Assembly (NCBI GenBank): GCA_963817955.1
Contig: CAWFQK010000004.1
Location: 1,376,001 to 1,440,000, forward strand
Length of the DNA: 64,000 nt
Origin: an uncultured Gemmatimonadaceae bacterium
GTDB taxonomy: Bacteria > Gemmatimonadota > Gemmatimonadetes > Gemmatimonadales > Gemmatimonadaceae
Reading direction: 5' to 3'
The notes beneath the pieces are model-generated. The model was not told the DNA's origin and did no database searches. It worked only from the letters and a program-made list of their open reading frames with translations. A program made the position numbers and the translations under genes. Shown piece by piece: positions 6,609 through 22,652 of this stretch (position 1 is its first letter; every line of letters starts with the position of its first letter).

Positions 6609-8265
6609 CTTCCCCTCGTCCTGCCGGCCATCAAGTGGAGGAGTTTGACCCGGCCACAGGTGGGGGAGTTTGAGGTGGCCACCGGGGCTCACGATCGCCG
6701 ATGGGCATCTCGGCCTCTGGGGCGCTCTCGCGGCAATCTATCCGACGAGTGCCGAGCAGCGGTGTTGGAATCACAAGCTGCGGAACGTGCTCGACCTGGT
6801 GCCGACGAAACGCCAAGCCGAAGTCACCGTGCAGCTCCAGCAGATCGCCGCGGCGGAGACACAGCGGGCGGCGGAGCGGCTGCGCGACGCGTTTGCCCGC
6901 ACGTACCGTCGCGTGGTGCCCAAAGCCGTCGAGTGCCTCGAGCGGGATTGGGACCGCCTGGTCGCGTACTACGCCTTTCCGCAGGAGCACTGGAAGCATC
7001 TGCGCACGACGAACGTGATCGAGTCTCCGTTTGCCGCGGTGCGGCTCCGCACGACCGCGGCGAAGCGCTTCAAGAAAGTGGAGAACGCCACGACGTTGAT
7101 CTGGAAGACCTTACTCGTCGTCGAACAACATTTCCGCAAACTGAACGCCCCGCACCGCTGCACCGACGTGTACGATGGCGCCGTATTTCACGACGGAATC
7201 TGCACCGTGACCCCGACCCGGGAACGGATCGCCGCCTGACGCCTATTTACACACCAATTGACAAGAGCTCTCACCCGGTTGTGATTGCGATTGAGGCCAC
7301 GCGTCTGCACATACCGCCGCCGGCGGCGCACCGGCCGCTGACCGTCGAGCTCGTACTCGGCACTGGTCCGGGTGACGACCGCGAGGCCCGCGTAGGCCCA
7401 GAGGTGGCGCTTCGTGCGGAAGCGCCAGGGCGTCTGCAGCGTCGCGAGGAGGAGCGCGACCCGCACCGGTCCGAGATACGGAATGCTGCGCAGCCCGGCC
7501 CACGCCGGATCTCGTTTCGCTTCCGCGAGCATCGCCGCCTTCGCCTTGGGGCGTAGCTGCTGCAGGACCGCGAGTTCGTCGTACAATGTCGCGGCCCGGA
7601 ACCGCACGCCCCGCTCCGCCAACTGCTGCAGCCACGTCCGGCGCCGAGCTGTTTGATAGACGGCGGTGCCGGGCGTCTTGATGCCGCGCGCCCGAAACAA
7701 CGCCTTGAGCCGTTGCATCACGCGCGTCGAGTCCTCGACGAGATTGGCATAGGTCCGCGCCAGCTCTTTGAGCGTGGCCCGATCGGCACTGCCATGATAG
7801 ACAGCCCGGAGCCGCCCAGAGCGCAGCAATTCCGACAACTCGTCGGCATCCGGCTGATCGCCCTTGTTGCCTTGCGGGGCTTGTCCGCGCCGGTTGCACA
7901 CGAGGACCCGGTCCACCACGGGCACGAGCAGATCGTGCAGCCACTGCGCCTGCGTGCCTTCCTCAAACGCGACGTGGACGGAGCCACGCATGCCGCGGAA
8001 CCAGTCCACGATCGGCGCGGCCTCCGTTGGCAAAATGGTCCGCGCGATCACGCGTCCCGTCTCCTCTCGCACCGTCGTCCCCGTAGTTGCCTGGTGCACA
8101 TCGAGCCCGACATACTTCAGCGTCCGTTTCATGAGAGCGCCTCCTGGCTGGGAGCTGTGGTTGCTCAACAACTCCACATGACCCGTCAGGGGCGCGCGCT
8201 CAATATCCGTTAGCTCGCCACCTAGTAACGCTTTACGTTATGGGCGGCCAGCGTTATTATTGCAG

Positions 8266-16182: not shown

Positions 16183-17802
16183 GAGGATGTAGGAAAACCC
16201 TAATTGGCTGGCGAGCCGACCGCGCCGCGTCGTCGATGCGCGGCGGCGGCGGAACTGGTCTGGCGTGCGGCGGCGGAATGCCGGTGACGACCGTGTTTCG
16301 GCGCGTTGTACCCCTCGGAACGGTGCCCCGCACCGACGCCGCGTACCCGTAGTGTGCGAGTTTCTCGATGTTGTGCACGAGACAGAACAGCTTCCACTGC
16401 GTCTCGACTTTGCGGCGGCCGCGCAGGGTGAAGCGATCGAGCCCTTTGTTGTGGCATATATTGCCGAACACCGGTTCCACGGCGCCGAAGCGTTTCGCAT
16501 ACCGCCGCCGCCCCTCCGGCGAATCAATGCGCCGTTTCATGCGGGCGGTGTGCGACTCGGGCAGCGGGGCCGTCTTGCCCTGGAAGAACATGACGGAGCG
16601 CACCTTCGTGGTCGACGGCGTCTCGAGACACCGGGCGCGCAGGACGCACGGGCCACAGTCGCGTTGCTTCCCCTGAAAGCGCGTCCAGATGTTGTCGCGA
16701 TTCACCCACTGGGCGCCGCTCCGGTTGAGCACCTTGCCCGCCGGGCAGATGCACGTCCGCGCCTCGGCGTCGTACGTGCAGGCACTCGCCGGAAACACGG
16801 CGGCTGCCTACACCGGAGCAGGATTCGCCTTGTCGTGCAGCGGATTGTGGAAGGCTTTGTGGTGATCCTGCGTGGCGAAGCGCTCATCTCGGCGGCGCAT
16901 GTCGTTGTCCGCGATGAGCGCGTCGACCGACATCGCGGCGAGTTGCTGCACGTTCGCGTCGCTGTGGTAGCCTGCATCGGCCGTGATCAATGACTCCGCC
17001 GTGAGCAGTCCTTGCATTGCCGCGACGAAGGGATTCTGCTGGAGCCACTCCCGGACCTGCGCCGCATCGTTCTCCAGGCGCTCGACGCGTTGCTTCTCCT
17101 TCTCCAGCAGCGTCGGCTCCGCCGACAGCTGATCCGCTGCGCGATGGCGCGCGAGGATCGTCTGCGCGGCAGCTTCGAGCTTCGTCGCCTGTCGCTCGAA
17201 GTCGGCGCGCGTCCCGCTCCGTCGCTTCGCCGCGTTGCTGGGGAACTTCACCCCATCGATGGCGAACAGCTCGCGACCGATCAGTCCCTCGGCATCGCAG
17301 GTCGCCACCACGGCCGCGAACACGCGAGCGATGTCATCGCCCACCGTGCTCACGAAGTGCGCGATCGTGGTGAAATGCGGGGCCGTGTCGCCTGAGAGCG
17401 ATGAACGTGACCTGCTCGCGACAGGCGCGCTCGATGCCCCGGCTGCTGATGATCCCATGGGCGTAGGCGACGAGCACGACCTTGAGGAGCATCGCCGGTG
17501 GATACGCGGGCGCGCCGGTGTCGTCGTTCTGGAATCGCTCATCGAAGCGTGGGAGGTCGATCGCGTGATCCAGCAGGTGATTGACCGCGTGTTCGAACGT
17601 GCCCGGAAGCAGTTGGCGCGCGAGATCAATGGCCAAGAACTTCGGATTGGTGTCGATGTACTTGTAGCGAGCCATGGCAGGACACCGGAGGAGGGTCAAC
17701 CGCGATGTGCACAGCGCTCCACGCCCGACGCTTCTTCAACCCGCCAGTTGCTTCGCGAGTCACCTCACCACAGACTCTATCGCAGGCTTTTTCTACAGCC
17801 TC
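16183..17802 (-). mobile_element. IS1182-family element, copy 2 (both ends; transposase pseudogene)
   Basis: IRs GAGGATGTAGGAAAACCCT / reverse complement GAGGCTGTAGAAAAAGCCT; AAC duplicated at both junctions. Transposase from ATG 17675 has GAPAYPP.MLLK, IDGVK and ADAGY, with a frameshift near 17400, an apparent internal deletion and a stop at 16808. Confidence 0.88.
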
Positions 17803-17896
17803 AACGAGCGCTGAACTTGACAAAGGGGCCATTGAATACGCTCGCTGCGCGAGCGTTCTTATATGATCCCTTTGCAGGTTAGCTCAAGCGTTATGC
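17803..17896 (+). repeat. attC site split by IS1182 (R'' AGCTAAC at 16176-16182)
   Basis: AAC gagcgctgaacttgacaaagggg...ccctttgcaggttagctcaagc GTTATGC. Confidence 0.88.
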
Positions 17897-17917
17897 TGAA
17901 TCCTTCCCTCCGCTGCT

Positions 17918-18673
17918 ATGACAGTCGGTAGCCAACTCGACCTACGCCACTTCGCGCTGAGTGTTCTCGCATGCGATGCACCAGATGCGACACCTACGCA
18001 GATCTGCGGAACGGCCTTTGCGATAGGAGGCGGCTATTTTGTCACAGCCGCGCACGTGCTTGACACCGTGCTCGAGTCACGCGCTCCCTCTCTTGGCTTT
18101 CTACCAGATCAAGCCCCGCTCGGACCAGTAGCATACTACCAGGCTCCGATCACCCGGCATGAGATCGTGCGAGGCCTTGACCTCGGAATTATCGCGTGTG
18201 CTGGTGGACCCTACGGCACTTTTCAGTGGTTCGGCAGAGATGTTGCCCTCCTGACAAACGTCTTGGCTGGCGGCTATCCGTACGCGCTCGAGCGCGATCG
18301 TTTGCAAGTGTTTGTTCGCGCCTATCGTGGTTCCATCGCCTCAGCGCATCAGATATATCAGCTTCCCGACGAGCCTGGCGGATACGAACTTTCATTTCCG
18401 GCGCCGCGAGGGTTGTCCGGGGCACCGCTGCTACTTCAGCAAATGCCGCCAATTGTGGTCGGCTATATCGTAGAGAATGGCCGCTCTGGCATGCTGGTCA
18501 TGAGCCATCGTGAATCGATTGCTGAATCGTCCTCGGAGACGGTTGTTGAGCAGTATGAGTACCTGACTTACGGGATTGCCGTGAGCTCAAGTGCAGTGGT
18601 AGAGGTTCAGAGTGAGCTGCTGGGCGGGACGATCAAAGATCACTTGAAGCGTCACAACCTATTCATAGATTGA
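17918..18673 (+). CDS. Trypsin-like serine peptidase cassette (no signal peptide)
   Basis: GTAF.IG, TAAHV (His), LDLG (Asp), GYP, GLSGAPL (Ser). Confidence 0.85.
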   Translation: MTVGSQLDLRHFALSVLACDAPDATPTQICGTAFAIGGGYFVTAAHVLDTVLESRAPSLGFLPDQAPLGPVAYYQAPITRHEIVRGLDLGIIACAGGPYGTFQWFGRDVALLTNVLAGGYPYALERDRLQVFVRAYRGSIASAHQIYQLPDEPGGYELSFPAPRGLSGAPLLLQQMPPIVVGYIVENGRSGMLVMSHRESIAESSSETVVEQYEYLTYGIAVSSSAVVEVQSELLGGTIKDHLKRHNLFID

Positions 18674-18690
18674 TTTCGATCCGCGATGCA

Positions 18691-18780
18691 GCATAACGTG
18701 CGTTGCACCAGCCGGGCGAGCTTTGGTAGCTCGCTGCGCTCGCATTTTGTTTGATTCGCCCCCAGGTAAACTCGGGCGTT
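18691..18780 (+). repeat. attC site split at R' by IS110 type B (continues TAGAC at 20341)
   Basis: GCATAAC...ctcgggcGTT|IS. The reconstructed GTTAGAC matches the next cassette end GTCTAAC. Confidence 0.88.
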
Positions 18781-20340
18781 GATATGACTGGGCTGGTGTC
18801 AAACGCTTAGTTCATTCGACGGTCACTGCGTTGGTAGTTGTGATGTAAGTGGATCGTGGAACGACGGGGGGCCGAGGCAGCATCGACGATGAATCCTGCT
18901 GATATGCGCCGGTTGCCGCGACGCGGCAGAGCGGCAAGAATTGGATTCGTCGGGAGCTGGCTCATTCTAGGCTCGGGGATCCCGCTATCACATGGAACGC
19001 ACGGGCCGCCATAACGCCGTCGAGAGTACTCGCACATCGAGCCTCGGCACCGCACGTCGGACCACGATCACCTGGGTCATGCCGCTTGCACCGGCTCGAG
19101 CTCGCGCATCACGGCCCACAGGAAGCCGACGAGTTCGCGCGCCACGGCCACGACGGCGATCTGTGGGCGCTTCCGATAGCTCAGATGATTGTATCGTTGG
19201 TGCAGCCGCTGCTGCGCTTTCCAGGCGTGGGTGAGCACCGCGGGCGGTAGCCCTTGCTGTCGCCGCTTGAGATCGACGCTGATCTGCGGACGATGCCGAT
19301 AGCTCCACGCCGCCTGCACGAGCACATGGCGGCAATGACTGTTGGCCGCCGTCGTGATCGAACCAAGCCGCACCTGATTGCCACTCGAGTCTTCGCGTGA
19401 GACGAGCCCGAGGTAGCAGGCGAGTTGGCGCGGATGCTCGAACCGCCGCCAGCCGACGAACTCCGTGGCCTGCACCATAGCGGAGTACACCGAGATGCCG
19501 CGGAAGCACTGCAACTGCCTCACCATCGGGACGAGCGTTGGGAGTTCGGCGAGCCGCTCGATCTGTCGATCCAACTCCTCGCGCCGCTGCAGCTTGTACA
19601 GCAACAACGCGTGGAACTCTCGATAGATGAGCCGGTCATCCGAGGCGAGCGGCGACCCGTCCGTCGTGAGGTGCTGGAGCCATTGGAGGTGCGGCGTGCA
19701 CCAATTGGTGCCCTCGGGAAACACAAAGCCGCGACGCGCGAGGAACTTGAGGATGTAGTGCCGCGACTTGAGGATCTCGCGTTGAAAGATCTCACGACAG
19801 CGGACGACATCACGGACGCGCTCCTCAGCTTCACTGGGGATGCGCACGGGGACCAGCTCGCCCGCGCGATAGAGTCGCGCCAGGTCTGCGGCATCGCGCT
19901 TGTCATGTTTCCGTTGGACCCCGGGCCGCTTGGGAATCAGCGAGGGCGCGATCACGTCACACGCGTAGCCCCACTCGCGGAGCGCACGATGCAGCACGTA
20001 GCCCGTGCCACTCGCTGGCGTAACAGGCGCGCAGATCGCCGGCCCGGGCTGTCCGTGCCAGCCATTTCTTGAGGACCGGCAAGTCGTTGGTCAGCTTCTC
20101 GAGCCGGGTCGGCGTTGTCGCCGCCGCGGGTAAGACCGCGATGGTGATCGAGTCCTTGTGCACATCCATCCCGAGATGGATGATAGAGGGAGCAGCAGGC
20201 AGCACGACCGAAGGCAGTGATGACATGGGTTGGTCGCCGTGTACGACACGTCGGATCGTCGCAGGTGGCTCTGGGAACTCCGTCTCAACGCGTGAGGAAC
20301 TAATCCACGCTAAGATCGGAGGCCAGCCAGTCATAACTTC
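18781..20340 (-). mobile_element. IS110/IS1111 element type B (transposase 19077-20226, frameshift near 20020)
   Basis: HLGMDVHK, KHDKRDA and YLGLVSREDSSG motifs. Sub-terminal IRs TATGACTGGGCTGG / CCAGCCAGTCATA. About 295-bp non-coding region downstream of the transposase. Confidence 0.9.
18880..19050 (-). ncRNA. Candidate bridge/seek RNA of IS110 type B
   Basis: Stem-flanked loops contain matches to the attC core (TAACGCC 19012-19018; CTAGGC 18967-18972) and to the IS circle junction (AGAATT 18937-18942; CTGATATG 18899-18906). Boundaries are approximate. Confidence 0.6.
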
Positions 20341-20364
20341 TAGACCAACAGAACAGATTCTCCC

Positions 20365-20973
20365 ATGTCTCAGCAGCGCTGTTCCCGGTGCGGAGCCGAT
20401 GTCACGACGCGCGAGCTCCCCGGTTTGGGAGTGCGCGAAGTGCTCGTCGATCGTCCTCGTGTGCTCCACCTGTGCACCGGCACCCCCGGATCATCGCGTC
20501 CGGGGGGTAGGTTAGCGCCCGCGTCAGTCGCCCAGCTCGGTGAACCAAAGGGCATCTCCACGCCCGCCAATTCCGATCCCACAGTTCGCAGGCCAGTGGC
20601 AAAGCAGTGCCGGGAGTGTGGCTACCCCATACTCCTGGTCTGGGACAAGACACGTGACTGCTACATGCCCGTGGATCAGGCCACGCGCCAGCCCCATTCT
20701 TGCCGCGCGAGTGATCTAACCAGAAGTGCCGTTGACTGCCCGACATGCGGAGCGCGGGTGAATTCGATGTTTCATCGTGCATCCGGGAAACGTCGCCTCT
20801 TCACCCCGGATGATAGTACGAAGCTGCATCACTGCATCCCGCCCGAGATCGCCGTTCGTCGAAGCGGCGGCGGCAGCCGGTTGGGGTCAGCGGACGGACT
20901 GCAGTCGTATCAGCGTCCTTCCTCCATCGACTGCACGTGTGAGGGCAGCGGTTGCGCCTCGTGCCGCCGATAG
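20365..20973 (+). CDS. Cys/His-rich multi zinc-ribbon protein cassette
   Basis: Three CxxCG...HxC units plus C-terminal CxCxxxxCxxC; fills the cassette. Confidence 0.6.
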   Translation: MSQQRCSRCGADVTTRELPGLGVREVLVDRPRVLHLCTGTPGSSRPGGRLAPASVAQLGEPKGISTPANSDPTVRRPVAKQCRECGYPILLVWDKTRDCYMPVDQATRQPHSCRASDLTRSAVDCPTCGARVNSMFHRASGKRRLFTPDDSTKLHHCIPPEIAVRRSGGGSRLGSADGLQSYQRPSSIDCTCEGSGCASCRR

Positions 20974-20985
20974 CGTGGCGAGGTG

Positions 20986-21075
20986 GTCTAACGAGCGCTG
21001 AACTTGTCGAGCGATCTATGGAAGCTCGCTGCGCTCGCAGCTTATTGAATTCGCTCGCAAGTTAGCTTTGGCGTT
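20986..21075 (+). repeat. attC site split at R' by IS110 type A (continues GTTAGCC at 22621)
   Basis: GTCTAAC gagcgctgaacttgtcgagcga...tcgctcgcaagttagctttggc GTT|IS. Confidence 0.9.
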
Positions 21076-21229
21076 CTATGAGAGTGATTGTCAAGAGCGC
21101 TCTTCGTGCCGGCTGATCGTTTCACCTTTTTCTTCTTGGCAATCAGCCCCGACTCTTTCCTGGCGCGCGAGACCTTCCGCCGGGCAGTCTGCTTTGGCAT
21201 CGTTGTCCTCCCCGTCACTCCAAGGGTTC

Positions 21230-21460
21230 GATCGGACGTGTGCAAGCGATTGGGTCGCGCGGAGGCGAACCATGGTTCTATCTGAGACTCGGCCGCACGG
21301 GCCGGCCTGTCGCTTATTCGGGTTCTGCGGAAGGGCCTATGGTTAGCCGAGTGCCTCGGCGGGACTGCTTGGCCGGGCGAACGCCCAAGATGAGACTGTC
21401 TTCCGCACCCACGTCCCGAATCCTGGAGCCGAGCGGGGGGCAAACGCCCACCTCACGGCG
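21230..21460 (-). ncRNA. Candidate bridge/seek RNA of IS110 type A
   Basis: AACGCCC (21380-21386) and GTTAGCC (21342-21348) match the two sides of the attC core; GTTCTAT (21275-21281) matches the donor junction. The second donor guide was not identified. Confidence 0.5.
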
Positions 21461-21476
21461 TCCGGGATCGCGGACG

Positions 21477-22544
21477 TTAGGTCGCTTGCACCGTCAGTTG
21501 CGTTGGATCGTAGCGTTCTCCTCGTTTCCACAGTCGTAACGTGATCGCCGCGAGCTTGCGCGCGAGCGTCACCCGCGCCAGTTCCTCTCGCATGCCGCGG
21601 CTGAGCAATCCCTGATACCAGTCCCGCAACGCGCCCGGCCGCACGGACGCGGCCGTGGCCGCCCCTTTGAACACATCCTTCACCACGCGGTTGTGATTGC
21701 GATTGAGGCCGCGCGTCTGCACATACCGCCGCCGACGGCGCACCGGCCGCTGACCGTCGAGCTCGTACTCGGCGCTGGTCCGGGTGACGACCGCGAGGCC
21801 CGCGTAGGCCCAGAGGTGGCGCTTCGTGCGGAAGCGCCAGGGCGTCTGCAGCGTCGCGAGGAGGAGCGCGACCCGCACCGGTCCGAGATACGGAATGCTG
21901 CGCAGCCCGGCCCACGCCGGATCTCGTTTCGCTTCCGCGAGCATCGCCGCCTTCGCCTTGGGGCGTAGCTGCTGCAGGACCGCGAGTTCGTCGTACAATG
22001 TCGCGGCCCGGAACCGCACGCCCCGCTCCGCCAACTGCTGCAGCCACGTCCGGCGCCGAGCTGTTTGATAGACGGCGGTGCCGGGCGTCTTGATGCCGCG
22101 CGCCCGAAACAACGCCTTGAGCCGTTGCATCACGCGCGTCGAGTCCTCGACGAGGTTGGTATAGGTCCGCGCCAGCTCCTTGAGGGTCGCGCGATCGCGA
22201 CTGCCATGATAGACGGCCCGGAGCCGCCCGCAGCGCAGCAACTCCGACAACTCGTCGGCATCCGGCTGATCGCCCTTGTTGCCTTGCGGGGCTTGTCCGC
22301 GCCGGTTGCACACGAGGACCCGGTCCACCACGGGCACGAGCAGATCGTGCAGCCACTGCGCCTGCGTGCCTTCCTCAAACGCGACGTGGACGGAGCCACG
22401 CATGCCGCGGAACCAGTCCACGATCGGCGCGGCCTCCGTTGGCAAAATGGTGCGCGCGATCACGCGTCCCGTCTCCTCTCGCACCGTCGTCACCGTAGTT
22501 GCCTGGTGCACATCGAGCCCGACATACTTCAGCGTCCGTTTCAT
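21477..22544 (-). CDS. IS110-family transposase (intact)
   Basis: MKRTLKYVGLDVH, FEEG and KGDQPDA (DEDD RuvC); YAGL...TSA C-terminal domain. Confidence 0.92.
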   Translation of the reverse strand: MKRTLKYVGLDVHQATTVTTVREETGRVIARTILPTEAAPIVDWFRGMRGSVHVAFEEGTQAQWLHDLLVPVVDRVLVCNRRGQAPQGNKGDQPDADELSELLRCGRLRAVYHGSRDRATLKELARTYTNLVEDSTRVMQRLKALFRARGIKTPGTAVYQTARRRTWLQQLAERGVRFRAATLYDELAVLQQLRPKAKAAMLAEAKRDPAWAGLRSIPYLGPVRVALLLATLQTPWRFRTKRHLWAYAGLAVVTRTSAEYELDGQRPVRRRRRYVQTRGLNRNHNRVVKDVFKGAATAASVRPGALRDWYQGLLSRGMREELARVTLARKLAAITLRLWKRGERYDPTQLTVQAT

Positions 22545-22652
22545 GAGAGCGCCTCCTGGCTGGGAGCTGTGGTTGCTCAACAACTCCACATGACCCGTCA
22601 GGGGCGCGCTCTCAATATCCGTTAGCCTGCAACCCTGCCTCCCAACGGCTCC

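Follow-up and report, generated by a model that had tools for sequence, protein, structure and literature searches.

We analysed a 64,000-nt stretch of DNA, here called the window, from an uncultured Gemmatimonadaceae bacterium (GenBank assembly GCA_963817955.1, contig CAWFQK010000004.1, positions 1,376,001 to 1,440,000). The window is the cassette array of an integron on the chromosome, and an attC site about 20 kb into the array is occupied by an insertion sequence (IS). This IS is very probably a decayed, RNA-guided element of the IS1111 type, from a lineage common in Gemmatimonadota, that inserted into the R′ core of the attC via a guide RNA. The region 3′ of its transposase gene carries a predicted RNA structure that is conserved and covaries among homologues, and the predicted guide segments in its loops covary with the DNA flanking each element. 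Since both stem covariation and guide-flank covariation are seen across about 200 related loci, our results support the proposal of an earlier first-pass annotation of the window that this is a natural attC-programmed bridge or seek RNA.

An insertion sequence in the R′ core of an attC site

The IS splits the R′ box of the attC, exactly where the first-pass annotation had placed it, with the junctions GGGCGT|T..IS..T|AGACC on the plus strand. The segment GGGCGT corresponds to 18774-18779, the element is flanked by T18780, the base shared with the IS end, and by T20341, and AGACC follows at 20342-20346. Rejoined minus one shared T, the attC reads GGGCGTTAGACC, which gives the R′ box GTTAGAC. 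Other genomes of the same genus or order (G414, G405, G023) have empty attCs that read GGGCGT|TAGGC. Integrons recombine at G^TT, which places the IS 1-2 nt from the crossover, and by integron rules the next cassette begins with the right-hand portion of the R′ box. The occupied site and the element comprise the following features:

18691..18780, plus strand: left part of the attC, with R″ GCATAAC (18691-18697), the central hairpin, L′ and the first R′ bases G18778, T18779 and T18780 (from the sequence and attC relatives)
18781..20340, minus strand: IS1111-type body of 1560 bp plus one shared A/T per junction (from junctions conserved in homologues and empty sites in relatives)
18781..18796, minus strand: right-end subterminal inverted repeat CCAGCCCAGTCATATC (from the sequence and homologue comparison)
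19077..20226, minus strand: DEDD (IS110-family) transposase gene, frameshifted at ~20017-20020 (from translations, PF02371 and PF01548)
20227..20340, minus strand: left end and 5′ leader, with a subterminal inverted repeat at ~20323-20336 that is one G short compared to the family (from homologue comparison and the leader fold)
20341..20346, plus strand: right-hand remainder of the R′ box, (T)AGACC (from the sequence and empty sites in relatives)

The traits of the element are those of the IS1111 group. It encodes a DEDD (RuvC-like) transposase with an IS110-type C-terminal domain, has subterminal inverted repeats of 16 nt, within the 7-17 bp of the group, located a few bases inside each tip (TATGACTGGGCTGG(CC) left, CCAGCCCAGTCATA right), and carries more non-coding sequence 3′ of the transposase gene (296 nt, 19076-18781) than 5′ of it (114 nt, 20340-20227). 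The window transposase scores 52.1 bits with PF02371 and, owing to the frameshift, yields a partial match of 24.3 bits with PF01548. An intact homologue of 381 amino acids (L018) reaches 54.6 bits with PF01548, 66.1 bits with PF02371 and 221 bits (cut-off 140) with NF033542, ‘IS110 family RNA-guided transposase’. The frameshift, which had been recognised in the first-pass annotation, is real: compared to six of six intact homologues, the gene carries one surplus base at ~20017-20020. A search of the genome by DNA similarity revealed no second full copy of the IS and only two left-end stumps. Because of the frameshift, the loss of 1 nt in the left inverted repeat and the lack of a second copy in the genome, the window copy is, to judge from its sequence, inactive, with its RNA module intact.

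The two left-end stumps of the same IS family are located at 720.5-720.7 kb (G000:C4; L002 1410-1545) and at 1661.7 kb (C4; L210) of the source genome. The former has kept ~130 nt of left end and leader, while the right part is cleanly gone, and sits in an attC-like site ..CTCTGGCGT|..|TAGGCGG. In the 5′ leader of the window copy (20227-20340, minus strand), base pairing is possible between the left inverted repeat UAUGACUGGGCUGGCCUCCG and the region of ribosome binding and translation start CGGAGACCAACCCAUGUCAU. This helix has 15 pairs, each formed in 45 to 51 of 51 copies, and the sequence barely varies, so that there is no covariation to test. Such a pairing could block translation of read-through transcripts that originate outside the IS.

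A widespread family with conserved junctions and orientation

Homologues were collected by a protein-seeded scan of one genome per species, which retrieved 78 loci with 48-89% amino acid identity, nearly all in metagenome-assembled genomes of Gemmatimonadota, and by a metagenome scan with a 20-nt pattern, which added at least 120 further loci. All family-wide counts are drawn from these ~200 loci, among the matches listed. An open reading frame (ORF) of at least 370 amino acids is present in 36 of 51 complete elements. Common to all loci listed are the junctions, with xCT|A or xAT|A followed by GAAGT.. on the left and ..CAGTCATATC followed by A|ACGCC on the right. The consensus of the 127 distinct right flanks listed, ACGCCCAAGTTCAGCTGCGAGCGAAT, is the reverse complement of the L′-R′ arm of the attCs in the window. 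Orientation is fixed, with the transposase antisense to the cassettes: the right-flank consensus corresponds to the L′ side of the attC, and the cassette ORFs of the window are encoded on the plus strand.

In four loci (L122, L123, L152 and L153) an extra GTCATATCA stands between the right IS end and ACGCC and looks like a partial tandem right end. Among plasmids, a blastn search with the IS gave no match, and tblastn matched 883 records, all below 60% identity with a best value of 42%. A Klebsiella plasmid match (H58) was dropped, as it is located outside any integron.

A predicted, conserved RNA structure downstream of the transposase gene

The 3′ non-coding region was aligned for 45 distinct copies (47 were found, two of which were left out because the contig ended). 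RNAalifold predicts a bipartite RNA of about 200 nt with an outer stem:

18862..19059, minus strand: predicted bridge/seek RNA, ~200 nt, with outer stem P0/P1 and two modules (from RNAalifold and covariation)
19031-18954, minus strand: target-binding module within the predicted RNA
18952-18884, minus strand: donor-binding module within the predicted RNA

The consensus fold of the 45 sequences has 46 pairs, 18 of which show compensatory changes. Paired cells amount to 97.2%, compared to 88.2% in shuffles, and the covariation score of 0.252 (0.089 when shuffled) is reached by none of 500 shuffles; sliding the partners by 1-3 columns reduces it to 0.02-0.06. Moreover, the frequent G-U pairs are compatible with the transposase-sense strand only. 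Each module consists of an internal loop that is capped by a strongly covarying hairpin. The four short segments named in the first-pass annotation are all present on the minus strand in the order it had given, and all of them are unpaired in these loops, GGCGUUA and GCCUAGAA in the first and AAUUCU and CAUAUCAGCA in the second. Its description of the donor matches as lying in a closed internal loop with an apical TGCCGC/GCGGCA hairpin agrees with the covarying fold, in which the donor loop is closed by CGACG.AUCC/GGAU..CGUCG and the UGCCGC/GCGGCA hairpin sits on top.

Predicted guide segments covary with the flanks and ends of the element

The four predicted guide segments, two per loop, are:

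19018-19012, minus strand: right-target guide GGCGUUA, target loop, 5′ side; pairs with TAACGCC of the IS-sense (attC bottom) strand (covariation with the right flank)
18972-18965, minus strand: left-target guide GCCUAGAA (GCCUAG(AA)), target loop, 3′ side; same sequence as the left flank xCTA followed by the opening IS bases GAA (position -2 covaries)
18942-18937, minus strand: right-donor guide AAUUCU, donor loop, 5′ side; pairs with AGAA at the left IS end (from pairing counts)
18906-18899, minus strand: left-donor guide CAUAUCAG, donor loop, 3′ side; same sequence as the right IS end (ATATCA) followed by the opening base of the left end (6 nt identical in 79/89 elements)

The strongest signal comes from the right-target guide, for which we used a register-free test that scores a perfect complement of at least 6 nt between a guide and its own flank in 129 distinct elements listed. 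The consensus flank ACGCC occurs in 92 of these 129 elements, and 89 of the 92 have a matching guide of at least 6 nt. Among the 37 elements with non-consensus flanks, 15 match their own guide, compared to 1.8 expected, and none of 5000 shuffles of the flanks among the 37 reaches this number. Viewed from the RNA, 15 of 19 elements with a non-consensus guide are located at a flank complementary to this guide. Such guide/flank variants include GUAGUUA/ACTAC (two elements), GACGUU/ACGTC, AAAACGUU/ACGTTTT, CACACGUU/ACGTGTG, AUCCGUU/ACGGAT and AACAGCU/GCTGTT. The remaining 18 non-consensus flanks belong mostly to the type ACGCT and face a GGCG guide, with which a G-T wobble can form. Another segment of the target loop, CCCGAG, was considered as tracking the right flank; by eye this is unsupported, as the segment is near-invariant and the flank varies.

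For the left-target guide, position -2 equals the flank in 58 of 63 elements, compared to 48.0 when shuffled, and none of 5000 shuffles reaches 58. Guides with an A at this position are found at an A-flank in 5/6 cases, compared to 4/57 for the others (Fisher p = 1e-4). The 3′ side of the target loop runs on as GAA, so that the resulting CCUAGAA corresponds to the left junction after insertion. In the donor loop, 79 of 89 elements have a left-donor guide identical to the final 6 nt of the IS, two of them with compensatory ATAGCA/ATAGCA changes. The right-donor guide pairs with AGAA in 60 of 65 elements and over 6 nt (GCUUCU with AGAAGT) in 17 elements. Furthermore, both target guides overlap in TA and both donor guides in CA, and it is TA that is kept at the left junction and CA at the right one. 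The first-pass annotation had proposed a search for guide-flank covariation among homologues as a check on its reading, and we found such covariation for the right-target guide, for position -2 of the left-target guide and for the left-donor guide.

Weighing a guiding function of the RNA

A number of observations weigh against a guide RNA. Taken alone, the four matches of the window copy are within chance: their summed longest lengths amount to 26, compared to 23.1 ± 1.9 in dinucleotide shuffles, 110 of 1000 of which reach this value. As single segments, GGCGTTA is reached by 138 of 1000 shuffles and CATATCAG by 40 of 1000. Therefore, significance comes from the homologues only. Even there, four of the 19 non-consensus guides (L027, L066, L123, L186) lack a match to their own flank. 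At the left target, positions -3 and -4 are not significant, which leaves support at one position, and the left flank of the window copy, GGTCTA, mismatches its guide GCCUA at -3. Hence, in the GCCUAG segment that the first-pass annotation had singled out, CUA holds as the left-target guide and the rest is unsupported. The occupied attC itself forms no canonical hairpin by minimum free energy and folds poorly alone. In favour of expression, a metatranscriptome contig of 162 nt that spans the equivalent of 18857-18984 in a relative is a weak indication; contigs show neither strand nor ends. None of the sequencing runs sampled contained at least one fifth of the sampled words of the source organism, which means that the organism is not represented in these runs, and no RNA from it was seen.

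Some of these points would fit a 3′ region that is structured without guiding, for example as an mRNA stabiliser, a terminator or a DNA-level binding site, while the protein itself reads attC sequence or structure and the matches arise by chance or are relics. The chance-level matches of the single copy are compatible with this, as is the lack of any Rfam match in the window at 17000-22000 at a permissive threshold, and the RNA is predicted from sequence alone. However, neither a protein-only reader nor relics predict that altered guides stand at complementarily altered flanks, as they do in 15 of 19 cases (0/5000 shuffles), and we consider a non-guiding region very improbable.

The donor loop deserves separate consideration. 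Its left-donor guide mismatches the own IS end in 10 of 89 elements, and its right-donor guide, the weakest of the four, is limited to four invariant pairs in 48 of 65 elements, the window copy included. Accordingly, the AAUUCU segment of the first-pass annotation holds up in its pairing with AGAA, and in the window copy this amounts to those four pairs only. Because a guide and the IS end it matches are inherited together, their agreement is weak evidence and identity proves little. It is thus conceivable that only the target loop guides, as a short seekRNA, while the protein recognises the IS ends via the subterminal inverted repeats and the donor matches have another role, such as a protein-binding scaffold. 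The short right-donor match in most copies points in this direction, as does the count of just two compensatory events compared to 10 one-sided mismatches, and target matches in a short RNA are what the seekRNA paper describes (PMC11187229). Against this stand the two ATAGCA/ATAGCA changes, which are exactly compensatory, and the location of both donor segments, unpaired in an internal loop with conserved closing stems and in the same strand order as in the target loop (top, then bottom). Moreover, bridge RNAs with a donor loop have been predicted for 93% of IS1111 elements (PMC11208160). A target-loop-only guide therefore seems improbable to us, and we favour an RNA in which both loops guide.

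In a guide RNA of this kind, the 5′ side of the target loop, (N)GGCGUUA, would pair with 5′-TAACGCC(N) of the attC bottom strand, which comprises the R′ core and the L′-R′ spacer, and CUA on its 3′ side would pair with the complement of the left flank xCTA. In the donor loop, UUCU on the 5′ side (GCUUCU in some copies) would pair with AGAA(GT) of the left IS end, and AUAUCA(G) on the 3′ side with the complement of the right IS end. Joining of the circularised IS to its target by the DEDD transposase would then take place at the shared A within a YA core. We infer the YA core and the exchange at the shared A from the junctions; by analogy to the IS621 and ISEc11/ISKpn4 systems, we presume that the transposase binds the RNA, that the IS passes through a circular intermediate and that strands are exchanged by the same chemistry.

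Besides the source organism, a plant-associated metatranscriptome (X20) contains contigs of 61-79 nt that match the left-end leader (20244-20328 of the window) with 0-4 differences. Five such contigs have a word depth of 46 to 2552, three of them at 1458-2552, and loose ends that resemble adapters occur in some. In X20, depth is ~9-10 for contigs that match the transposase body or the 3′ RNA module; strand, ends and true level are not readable from contigs, and parts of the IS that are uncovered in an RNA run are uninformative.

The host integron and its attC sites

The integron integrase is encoded 1.4 kb ahead of the window start and scores 414.6 bits with TIGR02249 (cut-off 265). Its gene (intI, G000:C4:1373624-1374562) lies just before the window on the same strand as the cassettes and is not divergent. 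The occupied attC belongs to the upstream one of two cassettes:

17918..18673, plus strand: ORF of the upstream cassette, a trypsin-like peptidase, whose attC is the site hit (ORF list; Pfam PF13365, 31.1 bits)
20365..20973, plus strand: ORF of the downstream cassette, a zinc-ribbon protein (ORF list; PF13240, 24.8 bits, just below the cut-off)

Compared to the consensus, the R′ box GTTAGAC of the occupied site, a probable attC, fits GTTRRRY, and R″ GCATAAC departs from RYYYAAC at one position. Neighbouring plus-strand attCs at ~1550, ~9995 and ~13679 end in GGCGTTA(G/T)(G/A)C and fold canonically as imperfect hairpins. In genomes of the same genus, attCs that resemble the occupied one share 74-88% identity with it. 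The two closest (86-88%; L251 in G406, L252 in G337) carry the same IS family at the same base and are preceded by different cassettes. Three less similar ones (76-80%) are empty, a pattern that may reflect either preference for an attC subtype or chance.

A second IS110 lineage at the same attC position

The array contains a second, intact IS110-family element at ~21076-22620 (minus strand) in the same orientation. Its transposase (21477-22544, 355 amino acids) is 23% identical to that of the main family and is followed by a 3′ non-coding region of ~395 nt. The element is inserted in the next attC as GGCTA|A..A|ACGCC, at the same R′ base as the main family, and by eye its 3′ region contains UGGGCGUU and GGCUAAC. 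Relatives were found in 20 of 401 genomes of the phylum searched and have the junctions xCTA|A...A|AC in common. In eight elements of this lineage, complementarity to the own flanks sums to 36, compared to 19.7 when shuffled, a value reached by 15 of 2000 shuffles. A truncated copy is located at ~7275-8212 (minus strand).

This truncated copy is interrupted by another element at ~6645-7275, with the junction ..CACAACCGGGTGA|GAGCTCTTGTCAATTGG...

It is a speculative and rather unlikely possibility that the integron crossover has become a common target of several RNA-guided IS lineages of deep divergence, two of them in this array, with guides that track host attC families, and that IntI could move such an IS as cargo, which would make it a parasite that uses both its own recombinase and the host integron. 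If so, the IS would form the first part of the downstream cassette, since every insertion leaves the G^TT (AAC) triplet intact upstream.

Relationship to known RNA-guided and attC-targeting elements

ISKpn4 and ISPst6 are published examples of IS1111 elements that target attC sites with target-matching seekRNAs (Siddiquee et al. 2024, PMC11187229). In the IS1111 seekRNAs described in that paper, the top-strand guide precedes the bottom-strand guide in the 5′ to 3′ direction, each guide being complementary to its strand. The guide order in the predicted RNA of the Gemmatimonadota family fits this pattern, as GGCGUUA, the complement of the top strand, is located 5′ of CCUA, which has the top-strand sequence. 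The IS1111-attC subgroup (ISPst6, ISPa21, ISKpn4, ISPa62) shares with our family a DEDD transposase, subterminal inverted repeats, the attC target and a long 3′ non-coding region, which is the source of the transposase-bound RNA in that subgroup and of a predicted RNA here. Also common to both is the antisense orientation of the transposase, seen for ISPa62 in a class 1 integron and described for the subgroup in PMC3001079.

In other respects the two groups differ. As described in PMC3001079, the IS1111-attC subgroup is monophyletic and inserts near the 5′ (R″/L″) end of attC, whereas our family is found in the 3′ R′ core at GT|TAG; its guides and inverted repeats differ as well. For transposase comparison, we used ISPa62 from a plasmid locus as a stand-in for the ISPst6/ISPa21/ISKpn4 group; in the matrix of the published supplement (PMC11187229), ISPa62 belongs to the ISPst6 cluster, is 78% identical to ISPst6, and identities within the ISPst6 clade are 76-89%. 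The transposase of our family is 26% identical to that of ISPa62 over 270 amino acids and thus, by pairwise identity, falls outside this clade. In a class 1 integron, ISPa62 is inserted antisense, 5 nt past R″ of the aadA1 attC (GGCTTGAA|..|(C)GAATTGTTAGAC), and by eye UAACAAU and GGCUUGAACG in its 3′ region match its own flanks. The low identity to ISPa62, together with the 5′-end insertion of the subgroup, indicates that our family forms a lineage of its own, with insertions at the opposite attC end. ISPa25, reported as a second attC-targeting IS1111 lineage that is 46% identical to ISKpn4 and uses the same site (PMC11187229), illustrates that transposases may diverge and still have the attC target in common, along with a similar seekRNA; our comparison with ISPa25 is by description only.

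Similar to the predicted RNA, the bridge RNA of IS621 (IS110 group; Durrant et al. 2024, PMC11208160) is described with two internal loops, one for the target and one for the joined IS ends, and with two guides per loop that address opposite strands and overlap in a short core. Unlike that of IS621, the RNA predicted here lies 3′ of the gene, its guide order is reversed, and the core, as inferred from the junctions, looks like YA with a single shared A instead of CT. Group IIC-attC introns are likewise mobile, home to attC by means of an RNA and are antisense to cassette transcription (PMC3001079). However, that account presents them as retroelements, with a ribozyme and a reverse transcriptase, that use an unrelated mechanism and insert near the 5′ end of attC. 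Within reach of a full-text literature search, we found neither R′-end insertion by IS110-family elements nor this Gemmatimonadota family; the founding IS1111-attC papers (Tetu & Holmes 2008; Post & Hall 2009) were outside the reach of this search.

Implications

The mechanism and attC-programmed guides are already known. What appears to be new is the lineage, its insertion at the crossover and the record that nature provides of guides being retargeted. With ~200 loci, at least 120 of them from metagenomes, the guide rules of an IS1111-type bridge RNA become readable from evolution, with 6-9 nt for the right-target guide, ~3 nt for the left-target guide and one shared A. The intact homologues would represent ready-made, naturally reprogrammed pairs of recombinase and guide for further study. 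Moreover, the R′-targeting lineage hits the attC end opposite to that used by the described IS1111-attC group, on the IntI crossover, and unrelated IS110-family lineages use the same attC spot. Insertion at the IntI crossover probably fuses or immobilises cassettes in environmental integrons.

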